From a virus (Duplodnaviria > Caudoviricetes): a DNA stretch of 64,000 bases. The translations under genes and the position numbers were made by a program. Position 1 is the stretch's first letter. Each line of letters begins with the position of its first letter. Shown here one piece after another: positions 10,962-31,883 of the stretch. Location of the stretch: positions 28,812 through 92,811 of the IMG/VR virus record IMGVR_UViG_2898133256_000001, one strand, 5' to 3'. The notes below the pieces were generated by a model. It had not been told where the DNA came from and searched no databases. It saw nothing but the letters and a program-made list of their open reading frames with translations.

Positions 10962-11002
10962 GGAGTCCGCGTGGCTGCATACCACGTGCCCGAAGCGCTC
11001 CG

Positions 11003-12698: not shown

Positions 12699-12703
12699 GT
12701 TGA

Positions 12704-14317: not shown

Positions 14318-14478
14318 TTGGACCAAGTTGCTCGGTTGGGGGCTATGCCGACACCAGAACGGAGGTCGTGTCGCGCAGCGATGGCGGCCTGAAGACGCAA
14401 GGGATCGCGTCGGTGCCGAAGCGCGGAAACACCTGATGCGCTAGGCTACCTACGTTGAACAACGGGGGATGTGCCGAG

Positions 14479-14931: not shown

Positions 14932-15000
14932 GAGGCCAAGACGCTGCGCTCAGAATGCTCCTTTCGGAGGTCGGCACACCTCCTGCTTTTCCCCTGGGCC

Positions 15001-15222
15001 ATGGACGACAGGGCTCGGCGGGAGGCGCTCGTTCAGCGTCTCGGGGAAGTGGAGAGGGAGCTGCAGCGGGCGGTGGCGGAGCGGGACGGGAGTCCGGCTG
15101 CGAGGATGCGGTACGCGCGGGCCCGTGCGGCGCACGAGTGGACGACACGGGAAGCCGTTGCCGTCCTCCGCGCTACCGTGCTGACGGACTCGCCCCATGG
15201 CGCTGAAGGCGGGGTGGGGTAG
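15001..15222 (+). CDS. Small helical protein, paralogue of 31897-32145
   Basis: Shared QRL.E.E...DGSP.A...AR...EA.AVL pattern. Confidence 0.6.
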   Translation: MDDRARREALVQRLGEVERELQRAVAERDGSPAARMRYARARAAHEWTTREAVAVLRATVLTDSPHGAEGGVG

Positions 15223-15231
15223 AAGGCCGCC

Positions 15232-15558
15232 GTGCCACACGATAGAAGCAAGACGCGCCCTGAGCGGCGGAAGGCCCCTGCTGGCTCTACTGTCCGGATT
15301 GACGGCCTCCACGTCTCCCGCGCCGCGTGGGCGCGCGTGGAGGCTCTCGTCGAGCAGATGAACCGGGCCGGTATTCCCCGGGCTCACCGCTCCGGTGCGC
15401 TGGACCTGCTCCTCGTCCACCCGGAGCTGGCCGCCCAGGTCCTCGCGGGTGGATGCACCGTCCACTGGTGCGCCACCTGCGCTGCGTGGCTGCCCGGAGT
15501 CCCGAACGAGGAGCATGCGGGGCATCAGGTTCAGGGCTTCGATGTGCCGTTCAACTAG
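15232..15558 (+). CDS. Hypothetical protein (possible DNA-binding plus Zn site)
   Basis: 108 aa ORF with CxxC...H..H C-terminus. Confidence 0.5.
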   Translation: MPHDRSKTRPERRKAPAGSTVRIDGLHVSRAAWARVEALVEQMNRAGIPRAHRSGALDLLLVHPELAAQVLAGGCTVHWCATCAAWLPGVPNEEHAGHQVQGFDVPFN

Positions 15559-15764
15559 TCATGGGAAATGCCCTCCCATGGCCCAGGTGAACTGGCATCC
15601 GCGACGATTCGTCTGAAGCGGGGCTTGCTCAGGTCGAACTCGATCCAGTCGAACGTTATTGGATTGCTCCAGCGCTCGACTCCACGGAGAAAGCCATCGC
15701 CTGTGTCGGCGGTTGCTGTTTCAAGAAGGATATAGTGATTTGTAATTCCTGTTTTATTGGTCAT
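15555..15764 (-). CDS. Small low-GC hypothetical protein
   Basis: GGAGG RBS; 69 aa. Confidence 0.35.
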   Translation of the reverse strand: MTNKTGITNHYILLETATADTGDGFLRGVERWSNPITFDWIEFDLSKPRFRRIVADASSPGPWEGISHD

Positions 15765-15892
15765 GCACGAGCCCCTCCACTGGGGCTCACCTAGATCTTG
15801 TTAGGAGTCGTTCCGAGGGACCTAAGCGCCTCTGTCTCTTGTTTTTGGCTTGGTCAGATGGGCTGCAACGAGGCCTCGCTTCGAAGTGCTGC

Positions 15893-15921
15893 CGGACCCC
15901 GTCCACCATGCCGGCGACGCT
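15893..15921 (+). promoter_or_regulatory. Promoter-like motif before gpM-like gene
   Basis: CGGACC-N17-GACGCT, 7 nt before ATG 15929. Confidence 0.55.
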
Positions 15922-15928
15922 GTTGGGC

Positions 15929-16516
15929 ATGGAGCGCTTCCCCCACGTGCCGGACTACGGCGCCCAGCAGCAGACTCAGCCGCGTGTCCTGAAGGCTCAG
16001 TTCGGTGACGGCTATGCCCAGCGCTCGGAGGACGGCATGCGTACTGTCCTCCCGCGCTGGGCTCTCCAGTTCAACGCCCGCCGGAAGGTGGATGCCGACG
16101 CCATCGAGGCCTTTCTCCAGGCCCGGAGGGGCGTGGAGCCCTTCGAGTTCGTCGTGCCGTCCAGCGCCTGGGACGTCACCGGCTTCCCGGTGGGCACCGG
16201 GGACGGGGTGCGCACGCAGTACCTCCTCGAGCGGCCCGTGTCTCCGGAGGTGCCCGACGAGCGGGTGCCGGCGACTGGCTGGACGGCACCTCCGCAGGTG
16301 TACCGGAACGGGGTGCTCCTATCCGCGGGCGTGGACTACGTGCTCTCCAGCTCCGGACTTGTCACCTTCGCCGCTGCCCCAGTGCTTGGTGCGGCGCTCA
16401 CCTTCACGGCCAAGGGCGAGCGTGTAGCGCGCGTCGTCTGCGAGAGCTGGTCGTCCACGGCGAAGGGCTTCAACTCGCACGACGTCAGCGCCGAGTTCCA
16501 GGAGGCGGTGGGGTAA
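15929..16516 (+). CDS. Minor tail protein, lambda gpM-like, with inserted DUF2460-like beta domain
   Basis: PRVLKAQFGDGYAQR, IEAFLQARRGVEPF, SAEFQE; insert GTGDGVRTQY...VYRNGV...GLVTFAAAP. Confidence 0.85.
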   Translation: MERFPHVPDYGAQQQTQPRVLKAQFGDGYAQRSEDGMRTVLPRWALQFNARRKVDADAIEAFLQARRGVEPFEFVVPSSAWDVTGFPVGTGDGVRTQYLLERPVSPEVPDERVPATGWTAPPQVYRNGVLLSAGVDYVLSSSGLVTFAAAPVLGAALTFTAKGERVARVVCESWSSTAKGFNSHDVSAEFQEAVG

Positions 16517-16635
16517 GGCGTGTTCTTACCTGGGATCGCTAGCCGCCTCACTATTTCAATGGGTAATGTAAATATATAGCATTTGCCCTCGCCGGGGCGC
16601 GTAGCCACTAAGGGCATCACGGCCACGCGCGTAGC

Positions 16636-17691
16636 TCAGAGTCCAGATTTGAGTGCTTTGGTGGGGGTTGGGCCAAAGGGTTCAAAGTTCATTGTCGACA
16701 TCAGTGTTGCTGCTTTGAGGCGTTTGGCGAACAGGAAGGGCATGAAGGCATCGCTGAAATTTGAGCGACGGGTGACAGGAAACAAGATGCGCCAGTGGGC
16801 GGAACGGCCGTATTCGGTAGGCTCATCGCGCTCGATGAAATCCATTTCGGAAAGGAGTCGCAAGTCTCCTTCTGTGTCTGCCAGTTGGACCTTGCGGTTT
16901 ACGAGGTCGTAGTTCACGCGAGCCGAACGGCCAGGCTCGAGTGTGGCTGATGTCTGGTCTATAAGCCAGCCATAGAGTTCTCTGGTTAGACGAGGCAGGA
17001 AACTTAGCTTTGTAATGAATTCGTCCAGTCTGTCGCGGGCGTCATCCACGCTTGTGAAGAGACTTTCGGTCGTTTCATCACTGAAGAAGATGGTTGCATC
17101 CGATCGGATTACTGTTGGCATGGGTTCGACGAAATCAGCGATTGTGGTCGCGTATCCGCCTCCTGGCAGTCGTGGTTCGAGTTCAATGCGAATTCGAGCC
17201 TGCTCGTTTGCTACCTTTCTATGAACGGACTGAAGCGTTGTAATGTCTAGGCCCAGGATCTCGCGGCCCAGGTCGGTCATGTCGACCACATTTTTGCTTG
17301 TGAAGTTCAGAGCTGAGGCGGCGTCCGGGTCAAGATCGTACTTTGCTTTCTTTTCCCCAATGATGAGCACGAAAACCGTCTTGAACTTGGTGCGCTGCTC
17401 GTCTGTTATCTTCTTTAGTGTGGAGTTGATCTTTGTGGCGTCCGAGCGTGAGGTGATTTGAAATGCTATCTTTTCTGTTTCGTCGCCAAGATCGAGCCCT
17501 GGCTCGTTGCTCCGATCTGCATTTAGGTTCGTGAGATTGATCCCACGAACAAGGTTCAGGACATCTCGGAAGAAGTTCTCAAGTACTCCGTTTAAGTCAG
17601 TTTGACCCAGCGCACACCGCGCTCTGACTTGGCTGGCAATGGCGTCTAGGTCGTCGATGACTTGGCCCACAAAGAAACCCCTGCTTGACAT
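16636..17691 (-). CDS. SMEK-domain protein (candidate anti-phage defence)
   Basis: TDLNGVLENFFRDVLN...NLTNLN...PGLDLGD...AFQITS..KI..TL; lower GC. Confidence 0.8.
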   Translation of the reverse strand: MSSRGFFVGQVIDDLDAIASQVRARCALGQTDLNGVLENFFRDVLNLVRGINLTNLNADRSNEPGLDLGDETEKIAFQITSRSDATKINSTLKKITDEQRTKFKTVFVLIIGEKKAKYDLDPDAASALNFTSKNVVDMTDLGREILGLDITTLQSVHRKVANEQARIRIELEPRLPGGGYATTIADFVEPMPTVIRSDATIFFSDETTESLFTSVDDARDRLDEFITKLSFLPRLTRELYGWLIDQTSATLEPGRSARVNYDLVNRKVQLADTEGDLRLLSEMDFIERDEPTEYGRSAHWRILFPVTRRSNFSDAFMPFLFAKRLKAATLMSTMNFEPFGPTPTKALKSGL

Positions 17692-17939
17692 TGGTCCTCC
17701 AGGCCTGCATGGAATCGCCTACTCTATGATCGTTGCGATGGGACAGTATATGTTCTCTTGGTCTCGGGATGACAAGGTGTCCACCGCTCTTGCGCTACCG
17801 TCATCCGAATGGGTTGGTCCATGTTGATCGAGGTGATCATTCATTGGGCGCCGTTCGCTGGAGATAGCGACGGTTATTCCTAAGTCGAGGCCGCGCGAAT
17901 CTTTCGGGTGATGCGAGTTGGTAGCGAACCGCGCTCCAA

Positions 17940-17968
17940 CGGACGGCGTCCACCGCCCGGGCGAAGAG
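17940..17968 (+). promoter_or_regulatory. Promoter-like motif before gpL-like gene
   Basis: CGGACG-N17-GAAGAG with internal GTCC. Confidence 0.45.
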
Positions 17969-17974
17969 GGAAGG

Positions 17975-18058
17975 ATGGACCACCACGCTCTTGTCGCCGC
18001 GCTTTTCGCTGCTTCTGCCTTCGGCGCCGCTACCGCGCGGGCAAGGGGCGCCTTGTGA
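17975..18058 (+). CDS. 27-aa leader ORF coupled to the gpL-like gene
   Basis: MDHHALVAALFAASAFGAATARARGAL; its TGA overlaps the gpL GTG (GTGA). Confidence 0.4.
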   Translation: MDHHALVAALFAASAFGAATARARGAL

Positions 18059-18750
18059 GCATCGCCGAGGACATCCAGAAGTTGGAGCCAGGCGCCCTGG
18101 TGGAGCTCTTCGTCCTTGACGCGTCGTCCATCCCCGGAGGCGGCATCAGCCACTTCCACGCGGGCACTAACGGTCTGGGCGGGCCCGTGGTGTGGCAGGG
18201 CGCCTCGTACCAGCCCTGGCCCGTGCAGGCCCGCGGCTTCGAGAAGTCGGGCACCGGGCGCTTTCCCCGGCCCACGCTCACCATGGCCAACCTCCAGGGC
18301 ACGCTGGGGGCCCTCGCTCGGGACTGCAACGACCTGCTCGGTGCTCGCGTCATCCGCAAGCGCACCTTCGTCCGCTACCTGGACGCGGTGAACTTCCCCG
18401 GTGGCGTCAACCCCACCGCGAGCCCGTCCGAGGGCTTCCCGGACGACGAGTTCGTCGTGGATGCGAAGACGACGGAGAACAAGCACCTCATCGAGTTCAC
18501 CCTCGCGGCGCGGTGTGACCTGGAGGGTGTCCGCATCCCCCTCCGCGTCATCACCCAGATGTGCGGGTGGCAGTACCGAGGGGAGGGGTGTGGCTATGCT
18601 GGGCCTCCAGTGGCTCGGGCCGATGACTCGCCGACGTCCAGCCACATCGAGGACAGGTGCGGGAAGCGCCTCTCAAGCTGCAAGGCGCGCTTCGGGGCTA
18701 CGGCCGTTCTTCCGTACGGGGGCTTTCCGGGCGTGGGATTGCTCCGGTGA
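18055..18750 (+). CDS. Minor tail protein L (lambda gpL-like)
   Basis: QKLEPGALVELF, PRPTLTMAN, RKRTFVRYLDAVNF, C.W.YRG.GCGY, D.CGKRLSSC..RF, GGFPG. Confidence 0.93.
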   Translation: MSIAEDIQKLEPGALVELFVLDASSIPGGGISHFHAGTNGLGGPVVWQGASYQPWPVQARGFEKSGTGRFPRPTLTMANLQGTLGALARDCNDLLGARVIRKRTFVRYLDAVNFPGGVNPTASPSEGFPDDEFVVDAKTTENKHLIEFTLAARCDLEGVRIPLRVITQMCGWQYRGEGCGYAGPPVARADDSPTSSHIEDRCGKRLSSCKARFGATAVLPYGGFPGVGLLR

Positions 18751-19694: not shown

Positions 19695-22070
19695 CTATGC
19701 GCTTGTTATGATACGAACAGGCAGGTGGGTCGCAATTGGGGATAGAATCCGGAACTGCTGTCGGACTAGGTCGTAAAGTGGAACGTTCGCGTCCGCGCGT
19801 ATGGTTGCCACCATGGTCATATTTAGGGGAGGTACTTTCCTGGTGAGTCCTCCGTCGTCACGGCTTGTATGTATGAGGTCTAGCCGCGGCAGGTAGAGGT
19901 CAGAGGCGCTGAAGCGAACGCGACCCCGGAGGATTGTTTCCCATTTGCCTGCTGCTCGGCGGGAGCTCTCATGGCCAGATTTCAGCCGATTTGAATGGGC
20001 TTTCGGAGCGTAGCTGATTGTCCATCCATCGAGGACTAGTTGTTCGGTGTCGATCTTGTCGAGCCTCACGTCCATGGATTCGTCTTTTCGTGTTGCAGAG
20101 CGAATCAGGTCGTGAGGTCGAAAGATTTCTTCGATACTGCTCAGTGTGTAGTCCGTCGCATCCGACGGGTCGATTTTGGATGTGAATGCTATCGTCCAAT
20201 CGATTTCGATGGTTGTGAACTCGTCAATGCCGGTGCGTGGTACGGGCAGCCGCATTGCAACGACTTCGTCCCGTGCGAGCGTGTCTTGGTAGATGACGCT
20301 CACCTCATGTGGTGCGCATGCGAAGATTTCGTTGTATGAGCTAGGTATGCGGCCGAAGCCTAGTTCGATGGAATTGTGCCCGCGCTGTGCGCGCTCGGAA
20401 AAGTGGGCACTGAAGGAACGAATGGCTGAAGGGGTTGTTCGTTTCTTCCCTAGAATTGTGCCAAGTTGAACCGCTCCGCGCATCGCTAGTGGCGACGCAA
20501 GGCTTGTCCCTGCGGATTCGACGTAGCGGCCGCGCTGATCAAGTCCACCAAAAGGCAGTTCGTCACATCCGCCAAAGGCAACGCAAATAGGTTGAACACG
20601 CTGGCCAGCACGCCCTGGACCAATGGCGCTGTAGCTGGCTCGAACGGCTTTTTTGCCTGCGTGCGTGCTTGTCGCACCAATGGCCAGTCCGTTTACCATG
20701 TCGCCAGGGACTTGGACTCTATTGAAGCCGAGCTTGCCGTCTTCGTTGCCATTGTTTCCCGCAGCAAGGAAAAACGTAACGCCCAATTCTTCGGCTAGAG
20801 TGTCGAGCTGCGAAGTCCAGTAATGAGGGTCGCCGTCGTCAACAACTTCATCGGGACCGAGACTTAGGTTTACAAACTTGTATTTGCGCTCGCGGACTGT
20901 GTTCTTGATGGAGTCGAGGCATTGATACAGGCCGTGGTCGAATTTGGTCGACGGGGCAAGGGGAAGGACGCGAAAATGATCAACATAGGCTACAGGCGTT
21001 TGGAGGACTGTGTCGGTAGGCGCAATGTGGCCAAAGAGGAAAGCACTTGTTACCATCGAGCCATGTCTCATATCCTCACTTGTCGGAGCGGCCGTAGTTA
21101 GGTCTTCGGCCGTCACGAATGGTTGGAGGTAAGGACTCAGCTGATTAATGCCTCCGTCGAAGATCGCCACTCGCTCATTTGTAAGAGGCCGTGCATCTGC
21201 GGCTGGAGGAGTTGGTCTCTTAGAGGAGCTTGCAGTTCGTCGGAACGTCGGCCGATACGGTCGAATCGACGGCATCGGTCGAATGGCTCGCACGAGGTTG
21301 AATCGCGCGGCCTCATGTATTGCTTCCGCGTGAAGTGCGATGGGGACAAATATGACGCCGCCTAGTTCTCTACGGAATTCGATGTCAACATCTCCATCGA
21401 GGTCCCGTATGTGCTTGACCCAGCGTAGGAATGCCTCTGGTTCCAGGTCTGACCGCTCATTCTTGTTGCGCCCGATCGGATTGAGGACGGTCTCCCACGT
21501 GATGACTTCGCCATCTCCAAGAGCCACCTTAGGGGCTTTGACGATGTCGTCTGGAGTGGCCAAGCGGATTTCCGAGAGTTCGCGTAGCTTGCTCCATTCG
21601 GGGTCCTTCTCTCCAACGGGCCTGCGCATTGCTGCGTTCGCGAAGCTGAGGACGTGAGCGGGGTCGCCTGCAATTAGGATTGTCTTGGTTGGAGCGTCGT
21701 CTTTTTGTTTCTTCTTTGTTTTGAGGACGCCCGTTGCTTGGCGAGTTCCGACCGGATAGAGGCTATGTGCCTCAAGCAATGCAGTTGGAAAATATGAGGG
21801 CGCCAAGTAGTTTGGAAGCAGGGTTGCTTCGAAGACAATATGGCGCGCTCTTAATGCTTGTGGCATTTTCGTTACTGCTTTTGCTAGTGACCCTGCCTGT
21901 GGTGCCAGCAGTGCATGAGCTTCGGCTAAAGTGTGTGGATGGAACTTGGGGCGACCGCCCTGCGCGATCGTGACAACCTCCCTTAGATGTTCCCCTCCAC
22001 CCAATAGTGGGCGCCGAACTTCTGGGCCGCCGCGACCACCACTTCCCTTTCCATCATTGCTTTTTTCCAT
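19695..22070 (-). CDS. S8 family serine protease (IetS/Y4bN-like)
   Basis: Catalytic D (AIFDGG), H (RHGSMV), oxyanion N (AAGNNG), S (GTSLASP). Confidence 0.9.
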   Translation of the reverse strand: MEKSNDGKGSGGRGGPEVRRPLLGGGEHLREVVTIAQGGRPKFHPHTLAEAHALLAPQAGSLAKAVTKMPQALRARHIVFEATLLPNYLAPSYFPTALLEAHSLYPVGTRQATGVLKTKKKQKDDAPTKTILIAGDPAHVLSFANAAMRRPVGEKDPEWSKLRELSEIRLATPDDIVKAPKVALGDGEVITWETVLNPIGRNKNERSDLEPEAFLRWVKHIRDLDGDVDIEFRRELGGVIFVPIALHAEAIHEAARFNLVRAIRPMPSIRPYRPTFRRTASSSKRPTPPAADARPLTNERVAIFDGGINQLSPYLQPFVTAEDLTTAAPTSEDMRHGSMVTSAFLFGHIAPTDTVLQTPVAYVDHFRVLPLAPSTKFDHGLYQCLDSIKNTVRERKYKFVNLSLGPDEVVDDGDPHYWTSQLDTLAEELGVTFFLAAGNNGNEDGKLGFNRVQVPGDMVNGLAIGATSTHAGKKAVRASYSAIGPGRAGQRVQPICVAFGGCDELPFGGLDQRGRYVESAGTSLASPLAMRGAVQLGTILGKKRTTPSAIRSFSAHFSERAQRGHNSIELGFGRIPSSYNEIFACAPHEVSVIYQDTLARDEVVAMRLPVPRTGIDEFTTIEIDWTIAFTSKIDPSDATDYTLSSIEEIFRPHDLIRSATRKDESMDVRLDKIDTEQLVLDGWTISYAPKAHSNRLKSGHESSRRAAGKWETILRGRVRFSASDLYLPRLDLIHTSRDDGGLTRKVPPLNMTMVATIRADANVPLYDLVRQQFRILSPIATHLPVRIITSA

Positions 22071-23259
22071 TCGACTGTGCCCCCGCTTTTCTCTTTGGCC
22101 TGAGGTCTTGCCCGCTGGTTGAGTTGGTGGTTGCCCAGTGCCGTATGTATTTTCCTACAGTGACGTGGGATACGTCTAGATGCTGCGCGATCTCGCGCTG
22201 CGTCATGCCGAGCATGGCGTTGGCCAAGCCAGCATAGGAAATGCGTTGTGCCTCCGACCCGCGCTTCAAATAGTTCAGCGCGCGTGCTGTGAGAATCGGT
22301 GTCAGGTGTGGGTCATTTCCGACTACGAAATCTCGAATGGCTTCAGAGGTTAGTCTTCCTATGTCGGAGCCTGACATTCCGGTGGTCGCAATTGCAAGTG
22401 TGGTGACGTCTCCGTCAGCTAGCGACTGGTTGTGAGTTGCTAGCGTCCGTATGAGAATTGCGTGGCGAAGAGCGAGGTCTGGGAGGGGCAAGCTGAGAGT
22501 CCGTTCGAAACGTCGCCACACTGCTCGGTCGAGAAGTTCAGGATGGTTTGTCGCGGCAACGAGTAGCCCCGTTGGAGGCCACCGGTCGATTTCCTGCAGC
22601 AGGACGTTGACGATCCTCTTTAGCTCGCCAACATCGCTGTCATCGTCTCGGCGCTTGGCGAGGGCGTCGAACTCGTCGAGAAAGAGGACTGACCTGTTTC
22701 GCTGGCCGAAGTTCAGGGCTTGCCGCAAGTTCTGCCCAGTTTTCCCTAACAGGGAAGAGACTAGGGCCGCCAAGTCTACGGTGAAAAGTGGCCATCCGAT
22801 CTGGGCAGCAAGGTATCTCGCCGTCATCGTCTTTCCGACCCCGGGGGCGCCCGTGAGTAGAAGTGTTCGAGTTGGCTCTAGCCCGGCGGCTTGGAGGACT
22901 TGTGGGCGCTTTCTCTCGGCTACCACCTGCTGGACCACTCGCTCGACGTCGTTCGGAAGGAACGGTGACGGAGCCTCATCTGCTTCGTCGACATGGACTA
23001 GGGGGAAGAAGGAGGAGTCATCGACGGGGGGCGATTCCCGACTGATGTGATGTGTGCGGCCATCATTTGAGCGTCGAAGACTCCTGGACGGCTCCGACTC
23101 GCTCAGCAGAGGGACTAGAAGTTCACGGAGCCTGACCTCATCTGGGGACTGTTTGTCGGAAGCCTTGGTGAGCCGGGAGGCGAGGCGGCGGATGGATGCT
23201 TGGTCGCCTAGGAGTCCGAGCCGAACGAGGTCGGCGATCATCTGAATGAAGTCCGTCAT
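22054..23259 (-). CDS. AAA+ ATPase (IetA-like) with C-terminal HTH
   Basis: GAPGVGKT, LFLDEFD, AATNHPELLDRAVWRRF; TQREIAQHLDVSHVTV HTH; overlaps the S8 gene. Confidence 0.9.
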   Translation of the reverse strand: MTDFIQMIADLVRLGLLGDQASIRRLASRLTKASDKQSPDEVRLRELLVPLLSESEPSRSLRRSNDGRTHHISRESPPVDDSSFFPLVHVDEADEAPSPFLPNDVERVVQQVVAERKRPQVLQAAGLEPTRTLLLTGAPGVGKTMTARYLAAQIGWPLFTVDLAALVSSLLGKTGQNLRQALNFGQRNRSVLFLDEFDALAKRRDDDSDVGELKRIVNVLLQEIDRWPPTGLLVAATNHPELLDRAVWRRFERTLSLPLPDLALRHAILIRTLATHNQSLADGDVTTLAIATTGMSGSDIGRLTSEAIRDFVVGNDPHLTPILTARALNYLKRGSEAQRISYAGLANAMLGMTQREIAQHLDVSHVTVGKYIRHWATTNSTSGQDLRPKRKAGAQSNGKKQ

Positions 23260-23353
23260 TGGTAACCCTTGGTAAGTCCTATTACCAATGTTCACATCGT
23301 GAGCATGAAGACGCAATGACGGCGGTGGTAACCGTCGGTCTTCCTACTTACCA
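23259..23353. promoter_or_regulatory. TGGTAA/TTACCA operator-like boxes upstream of the ATPase
   Basis: TTGGTAA-N6-TTACCAA at 23269-23288, plus boxes at 23259, 23326 and 23348. Confidence 0.55.
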
Positions 23354-23467: not shown

Positions 23468-24199
23468 ATGTCCCCCGTAGTCACGCCCGAGTTCTCCTCG
23501 GCCGCTGTCGCCTCCGCTGTTGCGCATGCCCGCGCGGATTTTCCTCGCGAGTCCTGCGGGTTGGTGGTGCGCGTCGCGGGAGAGCTGGTCTATCGGCCCT
23601 GCCGGAACCTCGCTGCGGGCCAAGCCCACTTCCACCTTGCGCCAGAGGACTTCGCGAGCGCCGAATCAGCAGGCGAGGTGGTGGCGGTGGTGCACTCCCA
23701 CCCTAACGCCTCCCCGGAGCCGAGCGAGGCGGACCGCGTGATGTGCGAGCGCTGGGGCCTACCCTGGCTCATCATCAACGTGCCGGTGGGGCACTGGCAG
23801 GTGCTGTACCCCTCGGGCTACCGCGCGCCGTTGCTGGGCCGGGAGTTCTCCCACGGCGTCCTGGACTGCTTCTCCCTCATCCGCGACTACTACCGCGAGA
23901 CGCTGGGCCTGGAGCTGCCCGACTTTGAGCGCCCCGACGACTGGTGGGCTAAGGGCGGGAACCTCTACCTGGAGGGCTACGAGAAGGCGGGCTTCGTCGA
24001 CGTGACGGGCTCGCCGCTGCGCGAGCACGACGTCCTCCTCATGCAGCTCCGGGCGAAGGTGCCCAACCACGCGGGCGTCTACTTGGGCGCGGACGTCGTC
24101 CTCCACCACCTCCAGGCTTCGCTCTCCAAGAGGGAGACGTACAGCGGCTTCTGGGCACGGGTGACTCGGAAGGTTGTGCGGCATCGCACCCTATGCTGA
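23468..24199 (+). CDS. Tail tip assembly protein K (JAB/MPN + NlpC/P60)
   Basis: PRESCG, VHSHP...PSEAD (JAB); GVLDCFSLIRDYY, NHAGVY (C40). Confidence 0.95.
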   Translation: MSPVVTPEFSSAAVASAVAHARADFPRESCGLVVRVAGELVYRPCRNLAAGQAHFHLAPEDFASAESAGEVVAVVHSHPNASPEPSEADRVMCERWGLPWLIINVPVGHWQVLYPSGYRAPLLGREFSHGVLDCFSLIRDYYRETLGLELPDFERPDDWWAKGGNLYLEGYEKAGFVDVTGSPLREHDVLLMQLRAKVPNHAGVYLGADVVLHHLQASLSKRETYSGFWARVTRKVVRHRTLC

Positions 24200-25269
24200 C
24201 GACGGTGGTGCTCGGCGGGCCCCTGGGAGCTCGCTTCGGGCGGGAGTGGAAGCTGGAGCTGGGAGTGCCCTCGCCCGCGGAGGCGGTGCGGGCCCTCTGC
24301 GCGGTGTGCGCGGGCTTCAGCCGCTACCTCGCGGAGAACAGCGCGCCCGGCTACCACGTCCTCGTCGGCGAGCGCGATGTCGGCGCCAAGGAGCTGGGCG
24401 TCGTCACGGGCGAGAAGCGCATCACCATTCTCCCGGCCCTGGCGGGCGCGAAGCAGGCGGGTGTCCTCCAGGTGGTGCTGGGCGCGGTGCTCATCGCCGG
24501 CGGCGCGGTTCTCTCCGTCTACGACTACGGCGCGGTGGGCGGACAGCTCATCGCCCTGGGCAGCAGCCTCGTGGTGGGCGGCGCCGCGCAGCTCCTCTTC
24601 AAGCCGCCCTCGGCCACGGGCCCGCTGGAGAAGCCCGACACCCAGCCCAACTACGTCTTCAACGGGCCGGTGAACACGCTGGCCCAGGGCCACCCGGTGG
24701 CCCTCTGCTACGGCGAAATGGTGGTGGGGAGTTGCGTGGTGTCCGCTGGCATCTCCACCGAGTGGAGCGCGGGCGGCGGCTTCGGCGGCTCCGGGAGTGG
24801 CCAGCACGGCCCGGGTGGGCAGGGGCCCGTGGGCGGAGGGTGCCCGGCGCCGTGGGTGCCCATTCTCCTCTCGGACGGCCGCGAGGTGCACGCGGGTGAC
24901 GTGCGCGTGGGCGCGTGGGTGCGCACCCAGGACGAGGTGACGCTGGAGTGGGGCGACTACCCCGTCTCCCACGTCTCCACCCTGGAGGCGGAGTGCTGGC
25001 GCCTGGTGCTGGAGGACGGCCGGGAGCTGGTGGGCACCTACAACCACCGGGTGCGCACGGAGGCCGACTGGGTGGAGCTGCGCCACCTGGACGCGGGCAT
25101 GCGCCTCGTCGGCGAGCGACCCGGCGTGGTGGCCCGCGCGGAGGCGGCCGGGCGCGGCCCCGTGGTGCGCATCACCGTGGCGGGCGCGCACACGTACCAG
25201 ACGGTGGGCTTCCTCTCGCACAACACCAAGAACGAGGACCCGGAGCGGCCCCATGACGAAGCACCTTGA
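24193..25269 (+). CDS. Tail assembly protein I (lambda gpI-like) fused to a C-terminal Hint domain
   Basis: LGGPLGARFGR, SPAEAVRALC, NYVFNGPVNTLAQGHPVALCYGE; then GGG|CPAPW...GTYNH...LSHN|T. Confidence 0.9.
   Translation: MLTTVVLGGPLGARFGREWKLELGVPSPAEAVRALCAVCAGFSRYLAENSAPGYHVLVGERDVGAKELGVVTGEKRITILPALAGAKQAGVLQVVLGAVLIAGGAVLSVYDYGAVGGQLIALGSSLVVGGAAQLLFKPPSATGPLEKPDTQPNYVFNGPVNTLAQGHPVALCYGEMVVGSCVVSAGISTEWSAGGGFGGSGSGQHGPGGQGPVGGGCPAPWVPILLSDGREVHAGDVRVGAWVRTQDEVTLEWGDYPVSHVSTLEAECWRLVLEDGRELVGTYNHRVRTEADWVELRHLDAGMRLVGERPGVVARAEAAGRGPVVRITVAGAHTYQTVGFLSHNTKNEDPERPHDEAP
24841..25224 (+). other. Hint (intein-like) domain, 128 aa
   Basis: Cys1, block B TxxH, terminal His-Asn, +1 Thr; no endonuclease. 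Confidence 0.85.
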
Positions 25270-27772
25270 GCGGGGGGCGCTGCGAGGCGCGGGCGGGGGA
25301 AGCGGAGGGAAGGGCGGAGGCGACGCCCAGCGCTCGCCTGTGGAGTCCCCGGACACGCTGAAGTCCGCCGCGCACGCGCGCGTGCTGGACGTGTTGTGCG
25401 AGGGGGAAATCGAAGGACTCGTCGGTGGGCTGAAGGGCGTCTTCCTGGACGGCGTCCCGGTTCACACCATCAACGACGCGCCCAACTTCCGCGACGTCAC
25501 CGTGTACGACGTCCCGGGCACCCAGGGGCAGGAGTACATCCCTGGCTTCACCGCGGCGGAGGCGGAGTTCAACGTCAACGCGGAGGTGAAGAAGAACCTG
25601 CCGGCCGTCCGCACCATCTTCGATGCGGAGGTGGACGCGGTGCGCGTCACGCTGCAGGTGCCGCAGTTGACGTTCCAGCACCCCGAGACGGGGGACTTGC
25701 AGCCGTCCACCCTCAACGTCGCCATCGACGTGCAGAGCAACGGCGGTGGTTGGGTGGAGCAGGACCTGCAGGGCGCGGGCGTCATCCGAGGGAAGTGCAC
25801 CAGCCCCTACGAGAGGACGTACCGCGTGGAGCTCACCGGCAGCCCGCCGTGGGACATCCGCGTGCGGCGCCTCACGCCGGACTCCGACACCGTCGCCCTC
25901 CAGAACCGTACGTTCTGGAAGTCCTACGCGACGTTGATTGACGAGAAGCTGAGCTTCCCGAACACCGCCATCGTGGCCCTCGAGGTGTCGGCCCGGCAGT
26001 TCGGCAGCGTGCCCACGCGCAGCTACCGGATTCGCGGGCTGAAGGTGAAGGTGCCCAGCAACTACAACCCAGCGACGCGCGAGTACTCGGGTACGTGGGA
26101 CGGCACCTTCCAGGTGGCGTGGACGGACAACCCGGCGTGGTGCCTGTACGACTTGTTGACGACGAAGCGGTACGGCCTGGGGCGCTATCTGGACGAGGCC
26201 CAGGTGGACAAGTGGGGCCTGTACACGGTGGCCCGCTACTGCGACGAGCTGGTGCCGGACGGCAAGGGCGGCATGGAGCCGCGCTTCACCTGCAACCTCT
26301 ACCTCCAGACGCAGGCGGAGGCGTACCAGGTGGTGGGCAACCTCGCCTCCATCTTCAGAGGACTCGTCTACTGGGCCAGCGGCGCGGTGTACGTGGCCCA
26401 GGACGCGCCCCGGGACGCGGAGTACCTCTTCACGCCCTCCAACGTGGTGGACGGCCTCTTCACCTACTCGGGCACCTCGCGGCGCGCGCGGCACACCGTG
26501 GCGTTGGTGACGTGGAATGACCCCGGCAACCAGTACAAGGCTGCGGTGGAGCACGTGCCGGACGAGGAGGGGATGCTCGACTACGGCTACAACCCCACGG
26601 ACGTGGTGGCGCTGGGGTGCACCTCGCGCAGCCAGGCGCAGCGGGTGGGCCGGTGGCTGCTGCACACCGAGCGGCTGGAGACGGAGACGGTGGTGTTCCG
26701 CACGGGCATGGAAGGCGCCCTGCGCAACCCCGGCGCCGTCGTGAAGGTGGTGGACCCGACGCGCGCGGGACGGCGCTGGGGCGGGCGGGTGGTGGAGGCC
26801 ACCGCGTCGCACGTGGAGCTGGACGCGGACGTCACCCTCGAGGCTGGGAACACGTACACCCTCTCCGTGGTGCTGCCCGACGGCACGGTGGAGGAGCGGC
26901 CGGTGGCGACCCTGCCGGCGGCGCCCTACCGCGCCCTCACGCTGGCCGCGCCGTTCTCCGCCGCGCCCGTGGCCCAAGCCGTCTGGGTGCTGGCGGCGAA
27001 TGACTTGGTGCCCACCCTCTGGCGCGTGCTGGCCGTCGCCGAGGTGGAGCCGCACGTCTTCGAGGTGACGGCGCTGGCGCACCACCCGGGCAAGTACGCC
27101 GCAGTGGAGCAGGGGGTGAAGCTCCAGCCGCTGCCCACCTCCGTGCTGCCCTCGTCATCCCCACCCGAGGGGCTGGTGGTGGGGGAGGGGCTCTACAAGA
27201 CGACAAACGGCGGGGTGCGGGTGCAGCTCAACGCGCGGTGGACGCAGCGGCCCGGCGCCGTCGCGTACGTCGTGCGCTGGCGCCTGTCCGAGGGCAACTG
27301 GAGTGCCGAGGACCGCCTCCAGACGCACTTCTGGGAGCTGGCGGACGTGGCGCCGGGGCCGTACCGGGTGCAGGTGGCGGCCGAGCTGGGAGGCTTCACC
27401 ACCGCGTTCAGCGAGGCGGCGTACACCGTACTGGGCAAGGCGGCGCCCCCGTCGGACGTGGCGGGCTTCCAGTGCACGCTCAACGGCAACACCGTCACGC
27501 TTCGGTGGGCGGAAATCCCGGACCTCGACAGGGACATGTACGAGCTGCGGTATGGGGGCTCGAGCTGGGAGACGGCCTCCCTCATCGCCAAGGTGCGCGC
27601 CACCTCCTTCGAGTGGGCCCTGCCGGCGCTCGGCGTCAACCAGGTGGTGCGCCTCAAGGCCATCGACACCACCGGGAACTACTCCACCAACGCAGTCAGC
27701 CTCACGGTGGTGGCGGCGCCCACGGTGCCGTCCTCCATCACCATGACGGTGTCCTCGACGCCGCCGGCCTAG
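25253..27772 (+). CDS. Central tail tip / host specificity protein J-like
   Basis: CEGEIEGL, VPSNYNP.TREYSGTWDGTF..AWTDNPAW, EPRFTCN, GCTSRSQAQRVGRW; FN3-like C-terminus. Confidence 0.95.
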   Translation: MTKHLERGALRGAGGGSGGKGGGDAQRSPVESPDTLKSAAHARVLDVLCEGEIEGLVGGLKGVFLDGVPVHTINDAPNFRDVTVYDVPGTQGQEYIPGFTAAEAEFNVNAEVKKNLPAVRTIFDAEVDAVRVTLQVPQLTFQHPETGDLQPSTLNVAIDVQSNGGGWVEQDLQGAGVIRGKCTSPYERTYRVELTGSPPWDIRVRRLTPDSDTVALQNRTFWKSYATLIDEKLSFPNTAIVALEVSARQFGSVPTRSYRIRGLKVKVPSNYNPATREYSGTWDGTFQVAWTDNPAWCLYDLLTTKRYGLGRYLDEAQVDKWGLYTVARYCDELVPDGKGGMEPRFTCNLYLQTQAEAYQVVGNLASIFRGLVYWASGAVYVAQDAPRDAEYLFTPSNVVDGLFTYSGTSRRARHTVALVTWNDPGNQYKAAVEHVPDEEGMLDYGYNPTDVVALGCTSRSQAQRVGRWLLHTERLETETVVFRTGMEGALRNPGAVVKVVDPTRAGRRWGGRVVEATASHVELDADVTLEAGNTYTLSVVLPDGTVEERPVATLPAAPYRALTLAAPFSAAPVAQAVWVLAANDLVPTLWRVLAVAEVEPHVFEVTALAHHPGKYAAVEQGVKLQPLPTSVLPSSSPPEGLVVGEGLYKTTNGGVRVQLNARWTQRPGAVAYVVRWRLSEGNWSAEDRLQTHFWELADVAPGPYRVQVAAELGGFTTAFSEAAYTVLGKAAPPSDVAGFQCTLNGNTVTLRWAEIPDLDRDMYELRYGGSSWETASLIAKVRATSFEWALPALGVNQVVRLKAIDTTGNYSTNAVSLTVVAAPTVPSSITMTVSSTPPA

Positions 27773-27783: not shown

Positions 27784-29886
27784 ATGCGCTCACGCGAGCA
27801 GGAAATGCAGGGCGGCATTGTCGAGGACGGAGAGCCGGGCCAGCCGCGCCCGCGCGTCATCAAACCGAAGTACCTCGACATCCGCTGGACGCATGAGGAG
27901 ACGCTTCCCGCCCACCTCCTGGAAGGCTTCCAGGTGGCAGTCTTCACGGGGAACGACCCGAACAACGCTGACGCCTACCTCGTTGAGCCCAAGCGCGTAG
28001 GGCCTGCGGAGCGCCGCGTGGTGGTGACGCTGCGGGTGACGTCCACCACGAGCGCGAAGTGCGCGGTGCAGGCTCTCTACGCCAACGGCAACCAGGGAAG
28101 CTGGAGGGTGCTGGGCGGCACCGTGGTGGCGGACCCGGATACCCTCACGGTGGCGACGCAGACGCTGTCCAACGTGCCCGACGGCAGCGTCGACACCGGC
28201 CTCCTGAGCCCGGGGGCGGTGACGTCCAGCAAGGTGGCGCCGGCCGCCATCGCCACGCAGCACCTGCTGCTGCCGCCCTCGGACAACCTGGTGCCCAACG
28301 GCTACGGCGAGGCGGGCACCGCTGCGCTGGGGAACTCTCCGGAGGGGGACTTCCTCGTGGAGGAGCCGGCCAACGCGAAGGAGGGCCGGTGGTGCCGCAG
28401 GGTGCCTCTCAACGCGGCCGGGTACCGCACCGCTGTCTGGACGAAGCGGATTTCCTGCGCGGCGGGCGACGAGTTCTCCGCGGAGGCGTGGTTGAAGTCG
28501 TCCGCGCCGCTGTCGGGCAACCAGGGGGGAGGGCTGTACTTCTTCTGGTTGGACGCCTCGGGCAACTACGCGGGTGCCAACACCCTCACGGTGGTGTCGG
28601 GACTCACCACCGCGTACCAGCGGTACAAGGTGAAGGGGGCGTGCCCGGCCGGGTGCACTGGCCTCCTGCTCGTCTGGGAGCTCAACGCGGCCGCCGCGGA
28701 TATCGGCAAGGCGGTGTACCTGGACGCCATCAGCTTGCGGAAGTCGGTGACGTTCGACTTGCTGAGCGCCAACACGTTGCAGACGTCCAACTACGCGGAG
28801 GACGGCAGCGGAGTGCCCGTCGCGGGCGCGAAGCTGGACAACGTGGGCGTGGCGCTGAAGGTGGCCAGCCAGAATCTCCAGGTGGGCCGCTACCCGCTCG
28901 AGGCGCTCTTCTACAAGGGGCTGGTGACGTTGGACGGGCCGGGGCCCGGCAACCGCTGCTTCTATCGTGGCAACAACCAGGGCGCGGTGCGCGGCGGCGC
29001 GCCCAACATCGACCGCGTGCGGGTGGAGTGCGCGGACAACATCACCACCGCGTCCCTCTCCTGGGCGACGTGGCAGATCTTCCTCCAGCCCCAGGCGCTG
29101 GACGACAACTTCGACGCCATGAGGTACGCGCGCGTGGAGCTGTGGGTGCGGCCGACTGCTGGAAGTGCATTCCGTCACCAGGTGCTGCACGTCGCGCTGA
29201 CGGACAGGGTGTACCGGGACGCCACCGAGTCCTCGGCGAACAATGAGGGCCGCGCGAGCTGGAGCTACATGTTCTCGGGCTCGGCATCCGCACTCAGCAC
29301 CTCGGCGACGTCCGTCTGGTACCTGCTGGTGTCCGTCGTCAACGCGTACGGGGCGAGCGCCTCGAAGTGGTTCGTGCCGGCCGCCGGCCGCAACGCGGCC
29401 TTCGCCTCCCAGTACAACTCGCCGGTGGGTGGCGGCGTCGACGGCGGCGGCGGTGGCGGTGGCAGCGACGGGGGCGGGTACTGCCCCGCGCCGTGGGAGC
29501 CCATCCTCATGGAGGACGGGAGCGAGCTGCCGGCGGAGCTGGTGCGGCCCGGCATGCGCGTCCTCACCCAGCACGAGACGTCCCTGAAGCTGGACGCCTA
29601 CCAGGTGGCCGCCGTGCAGCGCGCCCGCGCGCATTGGCACCGGCTGACGCTGGAGGACGGGCGCTCTGTCGTGGCCTCCAGCCTCCACCCCCTCTTCGTC
29701 GACGGCGCCGGCTGGACGGCGCTCTCGGCGCTGCGCGCGGGGGACACGCTGCTCGGCTCCCGGCCTGGCCGAGTGGTGGGCGTCGAAGCGGTGGGAGAGG
29801 GCGACGTCGTGCGCCTCACCGTCCACGGGGCCCGCACCTACAACGTGCAGGGCCTGCTGTCACACAACGCGAAGCCCCGCGAGTAG
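27784..29886 (+). CDS. Tail fibre / receptor-binding protein with carbohydrate-binding-like domain and C-terminal Hint domain
   Basis: Follows J; GAVTSSKVAPAAI, NLVPNGYGEAG...VYLDAISLR; GGGY|CPAPW...SSLH...LSHN|AKPRE. Confidence 0.8.
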   Translation: MRSREQEMQGGIVEDGEPGQPRPRVIKPKYLDIRWTHEETLPAHLLEGFQVAVFTGNDPNNADAYLVEPKRVGPAERRVVVTLRVTSTTSAKCAVQALYANGNQGSWRVLGGTVVADPDTLTVATQTLSNVPDGSVDTGLLSPGAVTSSKVAPAAIATQHLLLPPSDNLVPNGYGEAGTAALGNSPEGDFLVEEPANAKEGRWCRRVPLNAAGYRTAVWTKRISCAAGDEFSAEAWLKSSAPLSGNQGGGLYFFWLDASGNYAGANTLTVVSGLTTAYQRYKVKGACPAGCTGLLLVWELNAAAADIGKAVYLDAISLRKSVTFDLLSANTLQTSNYAEDGSGVPVAGAKLDNVGVALKVASQNLQVGRYPLEALFYKGLVTLDGPGPGNRCFYRGNNQGAVRGGAPNIDRVRVECADNITTASLSWATWQIFLQPQALDDNFDAMRYARVELWVRPTAGSAFRHQVLHVALTDRVYRDATESSANNEGRASWSYMFSGSASALSTSATSVWYLLVSVVNAYGASASKWFVPAAGRNAAFASQYNSPVGGGVDGGGGGGGSDGGGYCPAPWEPILMEDGSELPAELVRPGMRVLTQHETSLKLDAYQVAAVQRARAHWHRLTLEDGRSVVASSLHPLFVDGAGWTALSALRAGDTLLGSRPGRVVGVEAVGEGDVVRLTVHGARTYNVQGLLSHNAKPRE
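29482..29868 (+). other. Hint (intein-like) domain, 129 aa
   Basis: Cys1, block B SxxH, terminal His-Asn, +1 Ala; no endonuclease. Confidence 0.85.
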
Positions 29887-29916: not shown

Positions 29917-30450
29917 ATGTCCCTGACGTCCTCAGAGGTGTACCAGCGCAATGCCGTCGAGTCCCGCAAGCGCGACGTGTCGTGCGCGCTGGCCCGCGTG
30001 CGCGGAGAGCTCGACGCCGCGGGCGCCTCCGCCCGGCACTTCGCCACCGTCGGCCAGGGGCTCCAGGTGCGCCGCGCGGAGCTGGAGGGCGAGATGCAGG
30101 CACTGGCGGCCAGCGGCGTCGCCGGGCTCACCGACGATTGGGGCAAGTACAGCGCGCTCGAGCTGGCGGCCCAGGAGGAGCGCTACCCCGCCAAGGCCCT
30201 CGCCTACGACTGGCTGGTGGCGCACCCGACGGCCACCTTCCTGGAGACGGCGGGCGAACTGGAGCGCCTCATGCTGGAGGCGCGCACCGCGGCGGGCCGG
30301 CCCTGGCTGCTGTGGCGCGCGGACGGGCTGCTGCGCGAGTGGCAGGCCAACGCGGTTGCCCGGGGGCACGTCGCCGGCAACACGTGGGAAGCGTTTCGGG
30401 ACTACCTCCTCGTCATCGGGAAGGATGCTGCCCTCGGGGGCATGTTGTGA
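29917..30450 (+). CDS. Hypothetical phage tail-region protein
   Basis: AGGAG RBS; phage-like codon usage. Confidence 0.7.
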   Translation: MSLTSSEVYQRNAVESRKRDVSCALARVRGELDAAGASARHFATVGQGLQVRRAELEGEMQALAASGVAGLTDDWGKYSALELAAQEERYPAKALAYDWLVAHPTATFLETAGELERLMLEARTAAGRPWLLWRADGLLREWQANAVARGHVAGNTWEAFRDYLLVIGKDAALGGML

Positions 30451-30567: not shown

Positions 30568-31302
30568 ATGCCTCTCGGCACGTGGGAACGGACGCTTCCG
30601 GTCAGAACCTCGAAGGGGTGGCCCGAGCCCGCGAAGTGGCAGCCGTGCGCGTTCTGCGGAAAGCCAGCGCATGCTCTGGCGGAGGCGCCCGGGTCGAACG
30701 ACGGCAACTCCGGGACGCTGAGTAGGAACATCCTCAATGGAGCGGAGCCTGAATCGCACCCGTGGTTCACGGGCTCCTACTCGATTGCGGCGCACCACCT
30801 CATCTGCTCGGAGTCGATGAGCGGTGATGAGGACTGGGCCTGCATCTGCTGGTACTTCGGGTACGACATCAATGGACCGAAGAACGGCGTGTTCCTGCCG
30901 TCGGTGCCCTCGGTGGCGTGCGAGCTCCACGTCCCAGTTCACCGCGGCCCGCACTTCGGTGGCTGGGCCTACGACATGGACCTCTCGTATCCCGAGGCGG
31001 TGATGGAACTACTGGAGGGCTATGCCGAGTCGGCGCGTCGCGGGCGCTACTGTGGCAATCCTTCCGGGCTGGGCAGCGACCTTGATGGGCTCAGCGGCAC
31101 CATCCTGCGCAAGGTGGCGACCGGACGGTGGACCATCACCACCGACGGCCTCGACTACCAGGCTGGGGGGAACGGCTGCTCTGGGGTGACGAGCCTCCAG
31201 GGGAAGCCGCCGCTGCCCTGTCCACGTGGGCGGCGCCACGGCTCGCGACACGGGACGACAAGGAAGCCTCTCGCTCGCCGTACGCTTCAGGTGGGGGCCT
31301 AG
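30568..31302 (+). CDS. AHH-family HNH nuclease toxin
   Basis: IAAHHLI, GYDING.KNGVFLP, HRGPH. Confidence 0.85.
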   Translation: MPLGTWERTLPVRTSKGWPEPAKWQPCAFCGKPAHALAEAPGSNDGNSGTLSRNILNGAEPESHPWFTGSYSIAAHHLICSESMSGDEDWACICWYFGYDINGPKNGVFLPSVPSVACELHVPVHRGPHFGGWAYDMDLSYPEAVMELLEGYAESARRGRYCGNPSGLGSDLDGLSGTILRKVATGRWTITTDGLDYQAGGNGCSGVTSLQGKPPLPCPRGRRHGSRHGTTRKPLARRTLQVGA

Positions 31303-31304
31303 TC

Positions 31305-31883
31305 GTGCAGCGCGAGTACTTCGTTCTGAAGCGAGCGCGCTCCCAAGAGCACCCGCTGCTTGCGTGGGCGCAGTCTGCGGCAGCGTTCCGCAAGGGCGGC
31401 AAGGTCGCAGAAGACGTGCCTGTGCAGCTCCGCCTTGGTGAGCCCGAGCCGTCCAGACCAATCATGGTCGACCACCACAGTCTGCCGGCCCCCGTCGTTT
31501 CGCCGCGACTGAAGACGGTCCTGGAGTCTGCGAAGCTCGAGGGAGTCCAGTTCGTGCCGGCGGACGTTCACGTGCGCGACTCGGTGCTCCGTTATTGGCT
31601 GGTCCACATGTGGCGGCGAATCGCCTGTATGGACCCGGAGCGCTCGGTCTACGAGCGGTCGCCGAGCGGCGCCACGCTGATGGGATTGGACCGCCTGGTG
31701 CTCGACGAGTCTGTTCTCGGCGACATCCCGGTGGAAGAGCGACTGGCCTTCCGTCTCGACGAAGCGGTTGTCCACCTCTTCCATCGTTCGGTGGTGGAGC
31801 AAGTGCTTTCGATGTCGCCTCCACCGGAGGGGCTGCGGTTCATCCCGGTGGAAGAGTGGAACGACTCCTCGGCATTCCGGTGA
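31305..31883 (+). CDS. Cognate immunity protein (Imm11/DUF1629-like)
   Basis: PVVSPRLK..LE...VQFVP...YWLVH...CMD.ERS...LVLDE...FRL; starts 2 nt after the AHH stop. Confidence 0.8.
   Translation: MQREYFVLKRARSQEHPLLAWAQSAAAFRKGGKVAEDVPVQLRLGEPEPSRPIMVDHHSLPAPVVSPRLKTVLESAKLEGVQFVPADVHVRDSVLRYWLVHMWRRIACMDPERSVYERSPSGATLMGLDRLVLDESVLGDIPVEERLAFRLDEAVVHLFHRSVVEQVLSMSPPPEGLRFIPVEEWNDSSAFR

Follow-up and report, generated by a model that had tools for sequence, protein, structure and literature searches.

The window analysed here is a 64,000-nucleotide (nt) stretch of viral DNA (IMG/VR record IMGVR_UViG_2898133256_000001, positions 28,812 to 92,811) and represents a prophage of a Myxococcus-like genome with a GC content of ~0.70. 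It holds a lambda-type tail module with a capsid fragment, tail terminator, tube, tape measure, gpL, gpK, gpI, gpJ and fibre, in which two proteins end in a Hint domain: the gpI-like protein, encoded by an open reading frame (ORF) of 358 amino acids (aa), and the tail fibre (Table 1). Hint domains are known as inteins, Hedgehog autoprocessing domains, BIL domains of variable bacterial surface proteins and pre-toxin cleavage modules. The two Hints of the window are 47% identical to each other and are the only copies in the 11.4-Mb genome. An earlier note on this DNA had read gpK, gpI and the gpI Hint as parts of an ATP-independent, ubiquitin-like conjugation system; all the features it listed were recovered at their places, and the Hint after gpI is catalytically complete (Cys217, T282-x-x-H285 and His343-Asn344).

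The N-terminal part of the gpI-like protein is an ordinary gpI. Lambda gpI is matched over its full length by residues 2–196 (8iyk chain I, residues 20–216 of 223, E=2e-21), and two solved gpI proteins of ~200 aa besides that of lambda align there too; the protein matches phrog_32 (E=5.8e-53) and PDB 25vf (E=3.8e-32). Pfam PF06805 finds no match in it, though its homologues carry that domain. The beta-grasp assignment of the N-terminus goes back to Iyer et al. 2006 (PMC1779556), where it is a prediction; in the AlphaFold model a confident alpha/beta domain covers residues 1–83. The following helices (residues 89–135) are modelled confidently by AlphaFold, and the plug region with low confidence as a monomer; their lambda counterparts are putative membrane helices and a plug in the tube lumen, with gpI strands threading between the hub domains of gpJ and augmenting HDII, the HDII insertion and FNIII-A (PMC10721106, PMC11101478). 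Lambda gpI ends 7 residues past the point where the window linker starts, whereas the window protein carries ~165 aa extra, made up of linker, Hint and tail. The linker (24 residues, more than half of them glycine) leads to Cys217 (codon TGC at 24841), the Hint ends at Asn344 (codon AAC at 25222), and the region coding for the short tail overlaps the start of gpJ at 25253.

The extension is present in all the closest gpI relatives (at least 54% identity), whereas ordinary gpI proteins of 197–240 aa are at most 48% identical to the window protein and mostly end where its linker starts. A minority of Hint-less gpI proteins (P0165, P0168, P0176, P0178) have a glycine linker followed by a short Trp/His-rich C-terminal peptide with no sequence match to the tail of window gpI, and P0180 carries a different domain of ~100 aa after such a linker, indicating that the gpI C-terminus tolerates additions and is a recurrent add-on site. 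Judged by these alignments, the Hint on gpI appears to be appended rather than inserted.

The identity of the extra domain was established by homologue profiles and structure, since Pfam returned nothing for the gpI Hint even at E values up to 10. In an AlphaFold model of gpI built on 56 homologues, residues 217–346 reach a predicted local distance difference test score (pLDDT) of 96–98. Foldseek matched this model, with probability 1.0, to Tetrahymena BIL2, the DnaB and gp41-1 mini-inteins, the C. thermocellum BIL and the Hedgehog autoprocessing domain, with target TM-scores of 0.74–0.87 against BIL2, the two mini-inteins and the C. thermocellum BIL. A family profile from 50 sequences, run against PDB, recovered Hint domains at E=8e-13 to 6e-11; its best match was 8w20 (8e-13), which has 1368 aa and is annotated with an intein C-terminal splicing domain, while 2lwy, the BIL of C. 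thermocellum, scored E=5.9e-11. Together, model, fold matches and profile put the Hint assignment well beyond chance. For the fibre ORF the only Pfam match was a weak one to Intein_splicing (E=0.18), and NCBIfam gave only weak, sub-threshold matches to intein-containing families.

The catalytic residues are complete. Block B reads T282-Y-N-H285 in gpI and S-S-L-H in the fibre, and the gpI Hint has no endonuclease insert. The 50-sequence alignment shows no variation in Cys1, in the block-B His or in the terminal Asn, and the His before that Asn is near-invariant; the same residues are kept across the 146 domains analysed. The Hint is under purifying selection, with a ratio of nonsynonymous to synonymous substitution rates (dN/dS) of 0.12–0.58, similar to that of the gpI body. 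Beyond Lys346 the gpI tail is poorly conserved, with dN/dS near 1 over few codons.

The fibre ends GGGY|C...SHN|AKPRE, with H694-N695 as the terminal pair and Ala at +1. Its Hint was modelled by AlphaFold with pLDDT 85–93 and likewise matches mini-inteins and BIL2 in Foldseek. The fibre body was matched by Foldseek to CBM4-2 and also to the central fibre of mycobacteriophage Douge, the latter with a very poor superposition (root-mean-square deviation 63.5 Å, TM about 0.17–0.19). As modelled, the protein is built like a receptor-binding fibre that carries the Hint at its distal end. Homologues of the fibre occur in many tail loci. In NCBI records the relatives of the fibre are already named 'Hint domain-containing protein', and the gpI fusion goes under hypothetical or tail assembly protein. 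In Myxococcus sp. Y35 (L064:13576-15480) the fibre shares only its first ~125 residues with the window fibre, and its distal part is different and lacks both glycine linker and Hint. The receptor-binding end has clearly been swapped as a cassette, so that the Hint belongs to the exchangeable distal part of the fibre.

Table 1. Genes, domains and other features of the window (positions count from its first nucleotide)
Feature	Position	Strand	Details
Tape measure gene	5570-9463		
Caspase-like Peptidase_C14 protein	12704-13561		Second island
SMEK-domain protein	16636-17691		Second island; resembles Argonaute-associated effectors
gpL	17908-18750		
IetS, S8 protease	19695-22070	-	PADLOC IetS 9.7e-38
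IetA, AAA ATPase with C-terminal helix-turn-helix	22054-23316	-	IetA 3e-84
gpK-like tail assembly protein	23468..24199	+	243 aa; JAB/JAMM residues 13-104; NlpC/P60 residues 124-238
gpI-like ORF	24193-25269	+	358 aa; between gpK and gpJ
gpI residues 1-85, N-terminal ubiquitin-like (beta-grasp) domain	24193..24447	+	AlphaFold pLDDT 88-97; alternating strand/helix
gpI residues 86-192, two hydrophobic helices (89-135) and plug/beta-strand region	24448..24768	+	By alignment to lambda gpI and other solved gpI chains
gpI glycine-rich linker, residues 193-216	24769..24840	+	Ends Gly214-Gly215-Gly216; pLDDT <50
Hint domain of gpI, residues 217-344	24841..25224	+	128 aa; Cys217, T282-x-x-H285, His343-Asn344
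gpI C-terminal tail Thr345-Pro358 and stop codon	25225..25269	+	14 aa; Lys346 at +2; stop codon 25267-25269
gpJ-like tip attachment / hub protein	25253..27772	+	839 aa; no Hint; Pfam FNIII-A_GpJ 1.7e-39, Phage-tail_3 1.9e-24; phrog_31 2.5e-284
Tail-fibre body	27784..29481	+	Residues 1-566, assuming the ATG at 27784 as start; beta-sandwich at the N-terminus, then a CBM4-like jelly roll, a distal beta-sandwich and a glycine-rich linker that ends GGGY
Second, paralogous Hint, tail AKPRE and stop codon	29482..29886	+	Cys567 to Asn695 = nt 29482-29868
ORF of no known family	29917..30450	+	177 aa; directly downstream of Hint-terminated fibre or gpJ genes, including distant loci
AHH-family HNH nuclease toxin	30568-31302		Pfam 1e-09
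Imm11 immunity gene	31128-31883		Overlaps AHH gene; position as listed, true start uncertain
Integrase	56643-57860		

An exhaustive HMMER search with residues 217–358 placed the two domains in a family of 590 representative clusters (defined at 50% identity) at E up to 1e-3, 304 of which are retained at up to 1e-10. Residue and tail statistics were taken from the domains of the best 150 representatives, which total 144 in one count and 146 in the other. The tail after the Asn has at most 20 aa in 89 of the 146 domains, most often 4–5 aa, and exceeds 60 aa in 46. At -1 the family has G (43), T (32), S (23), Y (14) or A (10), with F also occurring; at +1 it has K (38), A (28), V (27), I (21), L (12), M (9), S (4) or T (3) and never Cys, so that one of K, A, V, I, L or M fills this position in 135 of 144 domains. 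Lys stands at +1 or +2 in 140 of 146. Because +1 is so rarely a nucleophile (Ser/Thr in 7 of 146, Cys in none), canonical splicing is, from the alignments, not expected for the family. The gpI-Hint orthologues have G, T or F at -1 and L, V, A or W at +1. The earlier note had pointed to Thr at +1 as allowing splicing onto the tail; Thr345 is present, but among the orthologues it is shared only with a 95%-identical viral contig (L008), and the part of the tail past Lys346 evolves near neutrality.

From their sequences, most family copies form the extreme C-terminus of gpJ-like or fibre proteins. The short-tail carriers contain Phage-tail_3 in 17 of 42 cases and the gene transfer agent-type domain Rcc01698_C in 5 of 42; others have fibre, FN3 or carbohydrate-binding domains. 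PT-HINT is matched by 25 of the 30 carriers with a C-terminal extension and by 4 of the 42 terminal carriers. Many internal-Hint relatives (P0021, P0025, P0027, P0030 and others) share a C-terminal domain of ~100 aa with motifs such as DGEFV and LGNGS; Pfam has no match for this domain, and in PHROG it is tied to a single family, of unknown function. A viral contig (L054:9395-13327) has two adjacent ORFs, each ending in a Hint of a Sphingomonas-type subclade, outside any lambda-like module.

Comparison of 68 fetched loci revealed that the Hints occur independently on the tail-tip proteins. Both a gpI-Hint and a fibre-Hint are found in the window and in L004/5, L007-10, L015-17 and L065/66; a gpI-Hint alone in L011, L013 and L064; and a Hint-less gpI together with a Hint on the fibre or gpJ in L018, L025, L026, L028, L036, L045 and L048. 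With every mix of Hint-bearing and Hint-less partners represented, the distribution argues for a module that acts autonomously and in cis. When 50 Hint domains were placed in a tree, those of the Myxococcus gpI proteins fell into one clade and those of the fibres into another, which marks them as old paralogues rather than products of a recent duplication, and no DNA repeats were found between the two Hint genes. Distant gpI Hints (L003, L004, L006) fall outside the Myxococcus gpI clade, with L004 grouping with the fibre Hints on a long branch, suggesting transfers of the Hint between tail proteins.

No tail protein was matched when the 50,697 phage records of INPHARED were searched by tblastn with the Hint; the only matches were weak ones to true inteins in T4-like recombinase genes (annotated RecA-like). 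In the literature searched, no Hint, BIL or intein-like domain linked to tail fibres, gpJ or gpI was found, and papers on intein-like domains and tail proteins dealt only with true inteins in terminases or with unrelated subjects. What is new here is the dedicated use of the domain on phage tail-tip proteins, its fusion to gpI and the His-Asn-x-Lys ending; the kind of domain is known.

With moderate confidence, we favour the view that the gpI and fibre Hints are C-terminal autoprocessing modules, a BIL/PT-HINT-like clade on tail-tip proteins, which remove themselves after a temporary propeptide role. A complete Hint leads one to expect, from its conserved residues, a Gly216–Cys217 thioester as the first chemical step. 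After translation in the cytoplasm, Cys217 would attack the carbonyl of Gly216, and an N-to-S acyl shift assisted by Thr282 and His285 would produce this thioester. It would be resolved mainly by hydrolysis, giving mature gpI (residues 1–216) that retains a flexible glycine tail, and cyclisation of Asn344, assisted by His343, would clip off the short tail. The fibre would be processed likewise at Tyr566–Cys567. The module would act in cis, independently on each protein, and would travel with the exchangeable distal end of tail proteins. By analogy, it probably serves as a C-terminal propeptide that is later removed, for instance to help folding or assembly or to shield the protein from premature interactions.

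Several observations weigh against self-removal as the whole account. His-Asn and the Lys at +1 or +2 are kept beside tails of only 2–14 residues, a conservation that simple N-terminal cleavage does not explain and that resembles a splicing or transfer signature; the conserved His-Asn-x-Lys ending beside so tiny a C-extein is a puzzle for intein chemistry. About one third of the family has an internal Hint followed by a further domain, so that release of C-terminal cargo may be the ancestral role. Two metagenomic gpI-Hint relatives (P0162, P0163) have a truncated or frameshifted Hint, reflecting either dispensability and decay or an assembly error. The propeptide or chaperone role is itself drawn by analogy, and, as reported above, no cultured phage in INPHARED has the domain.

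The lysine raises another explanation. The near-invariant Lys at +1 or +2 could be an acyl acceptor in an ATP-independent isopeptide chemistry that either splices the short tail in cis or staples gpI and the fibre to neighbouring tip proteins in trans, a proposal we regard as doubtful. Its cis form, in which Lys346 attacks the Gly216–Cys217 thioester, Asn344 cyclisation frees the Hint and the tail is joined to gpI or the fibre by an isopeptide bond, seems unlikely to us. The joint conservation of Lys, Cys1, Asn and the penultimate His is the pattern to be expected if all three reactive positions were needed, and Tetrahymena BIL2 is reported to join a Lys epsilon-amine to a C-terminus by an isopeptide bond, performing ubiquitin-like conjugation without ATP (PMC8616854); this precedent and the lysine hallmark together leave room for isopeptide chemistry. 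In addition, the Hint-less gpI proteins with a glycine linker and a short peptide (P0165, P0168, P0176, P0178) imply that the Hint may sit between two pre-existing segments. On the other hand, the tail beyond the Lys is unconstrained and can be as short as 2–4 residues, giving a product of no obvious use; the BIL2 C-extein starts Met-Gln rather than x-Lys, so the Lys position has no direct precedent; and the Lys could instead be structural or catalytic. If the Lys did act as acceptor, in place of Cys, Ser or Thr, the module would be an intein-like element of a new splicing class with a lysine nucleophile, and a covalent bond of a new kind would enter the assembly of phage tails.

We consider it improbable that the domain works along the lines of the earlier note, by ubiquitin-like conjugation in trans. 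Here the thioester would pass the C-terminus of gpI or the fibre, with no need of ATP, to a lysine on another tail protein or on a molecule of the host, and gpK would use its JAB domain to trim or reverse the product. Of that proposal the complete Hint stands, and BIL2 is a reported precedent for ATP-independent conjugation by such a domain; the links to the ubiquitin-like fold, Gly-Gly, Thr and JAB do not hold. The Hint does not directly follow the ubiquitin-like fold: 131 residues, comprising the two hydrophobic helices, the plug region and the linker, separate residues 1–85 from Cys217. The same Hint family also caps proteins that have no ubiquitin-like domain, including the window fibre, gpJ-like proteins and others. 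Gly214-Gly215-Gly216 does precede Cys217, as had been pointed out, but as a matter of linker composition and not as a discrete Gly-Gly motif: the conservation check named by the note itself finds Gly-Gly at -2/-1 in only 34 of 146 domains, and the residues at -1 in the gpI-Hint orthologues vary as given above.

The neighbourhood of gpK gives this idea its appeal, since an intact Hint adjoins an intact JAMM protease. gpK belongs to phrog_30 (1.3e-113), and its Prok-JAB (E=1.2e-18) and NLPC_P60 (E=9.6e-13) matches both lie above the Pfam thresholds. The JAMM motif (E...HxH-x7-S-xx-D) is complete, as the note had claimed, with Glu28 in ESCG, H76-S-H78 and S88-x2-D91; the NlpC/P60 catalytic set consists of Cys134, His201 and His213/214. 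A JAMM-type gpK is, however, present in all the lambda-like loci examined and accompanies Hint-less gpI (L018, L026, L028) and gpI-Hint alike, which leaves no specific coupling of JAB and Hint. A strict JAMM regular expression had suggested that some gpK proteins have lost JAB; this was rejected, as inspection showed Ser-to-Thr variants of the motif, with larger deviation only in L025/L048. By these comparisons the window gpK is an ordinary lambda-type gpK with no functional tie to the Hint, and the Hint is tied neither to the ubiquitin-like domain nor to JAB.

Work on the lambda virion bears on the same question in two ways. gpI is present there as a structural plug of the tip and gpK is absent (PMC10721106, PMC11101478), which supersedes the 2006 premise that gpI is missing from the mature tail; the absence of gpK counts against the conjugation model. 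Lambda gpI has its C-terminal strands alongside domains of gpJ (PMC10721106), which could bring acceptor lysines within reach. Against transfer between proteins, the occurrence of every combination of Hint-bearing and Hint-less partners favours autonomous action in cis. With this result, an appealing yet unsupported link of the Hint to the predicted ubiquitin-like domain in gpI and to the JAB domain in gpK falls away.

A further suggestion is that the Hint is not removed in assembly at all and stays on the virion, either to form a structural or adhesive end domain or to act as a latent reactive group set off by contact with the host. Judging from lambda, it would be located where the gpI C-terminus meets FNIII-A of gpJ on the tip surface, and purifying selection would fit such a retained domain. 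The invariance of the catalytic residues points instead to chemistry rather than binding, and no regulatory feature was seen in the domain. Active Hint domains normally self-process soon after folding, which also counts against retention, and we hold this explanation to be very unlikely.

Genes downstream of the fibre bear on the history of the cassette. Proteins related to the 177-aa ORF were found by phmmer in L007-L010 and L015-L017 (E 1e-55 to 1e-109) and in L025, L028, L029, L046, L055 and L056 (E 1e-6 to 1e-9); Pfam, PHROG, NCBIfam and ESM Atlas gave no lead for it. The ORF is part of the exchangeable distal cassette and may be a chaperone for the fibre or act as a partner to that cassette. 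Next come the AHH nuclease and Imm11 genes; relatives in Myxococcus keep this pair where the tail module ends, even those with a Hint-less fibre. One might suppose that the Hint is the relic or recombination handle of a polymorphic-toxin-style cassette, which once stood before a releasable C-terminal cargo and today chiefly shows where the variable end of the fibre is exchanged. The long-tail relatives that match PT-HINT and carry a further C-terminal domain (25 of 30) fit this picture, as do the fibre cassette swap in L064 and the AHH and Imm11 genes just downstream, AHH toxins being known to pair with HINT and Imm11 (PMC3482391). Upstream of the AHH gene, however, a search for DNA repeats brought up neither a remnant of a Hint nor shared DNA, the pair is present in loci with a Hint-less fibre (L011, L013, L064), and the short-tail forms are the majority and under purifying selection. 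We judge this origin the least probable of the explanations weighed here. The more specific candidate of AHH/Imm11 as displaced cargo of the fibre Hint was rejected because the two genes are likewise found in loci with a Hint-less fibre. The repeat search showed no orphan-cassette remnant upstream of the AHH gene.

The tail module is interrupted by two further groups of genes. An IetAS-type defence pair lies inside it, between gpL and gpK (window 19695-23316, - strand), in an insert with a GC content of 0.55–0.61, lower than that of its surroundings. In related prophages the gap between L and K ranges from ~1 to 5 kb, so that it looks like a cargo hotspot. A second island, between the tape measure gene and gpL (window 9628-17691), is mostly on the - strand and includes several ORFs without a family; no gpM-like gene was identified in 9628-17691.

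Set against known systems, the window follows the lambda tail tip in its gene order L-K-I-J, in a gpK built of JAB and NlpC/P60 and in a gpJ built of FNIII-A and Phage-tail_3. It differs from lambda in that the fibre part of J is a separate gene, with the second Hint at its end, and in the defence island between L and K.

The self-cleaving module that we favour has its nearest likeness in the A-type BIL domains, which reportedly go back to Amitai et al. 2003 and Dassa et al. 2004. Both have Cys1, a block-B TxxH and His-Asn in ~130 aa without endonuclease or +1 nucleophile, and the gpI model reaches a Foldseek target TM of 0.85 to 2LWY. Both also occupy variable regions of non-essential, surface-related proteins: the gpI Hint follows the end of an ordinary gpI and the fibre Hint lies in the exchangeable distal cassette. 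The C-terminal His-Asn, the variable-region location and autocleavage without a +1 nucleophile are documented properties of A-type BILs (PMC7765530). What sets the tail clade apart is that it follows a glycine linker at the very end of phage tail-tip proteins, has a C-extein of 2–14 residues and carries a near-invariant Lys at +1 or +2.

PT-HINT (PF07591), with its known role in autoproteolytic release (PMC3482391), is the closest Pfam family to the tail Hint clade. Neither window protein matches PF07591, however, and neither has a toxin domain after the Hint, the tails being 14 and 5 residues long and AHH/Imm11 lying separately, two ORFs downstream. The carriers here are virion tail proteins, not secreted toxins.

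BUBL BIL2 of Tetrahymena (PDB 6Y75/6TMM) is the top Foldseek match of the gpI Hint (E=4.6e-12, target TM 0.81) and, like it, would form a thioester at the end of an upstream domain, a step that for gpI is deduced from its residues. Ordinary mini-inteins resemble the gpI Hint just as closely in structure, and the identity to BIL2 is 17%; the ubiquitin-like domain of BUBL directly abuts the BIL, unlike that of window gpI, and the window Hint family is found mostly on proteins that have no such domain.

Tail spikes and fibres are known to carry self-cleaving C-terminal intramolecular chaperones of the Peptidase S74 type, a chaperone role being proven for S74. Like them, the Hint modules close a distal tail protein at its C-terminal end and are presumed to be removed after folding or assembly; they differ in chemistry and fold: S74 domains are Ser-Lys dyad proteases, whereas the Hint would use a thioester and Asn cyclisation on an unrelated fold. 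If the modules do cleave themselves, this would affect the annotation of tail-fibre genes, the delimiting of receptor-binding ends and the engineering of fibres, and phage tails would have a second, chemically unrelated solution to the removable C-terminal propeptide of tail spikes.

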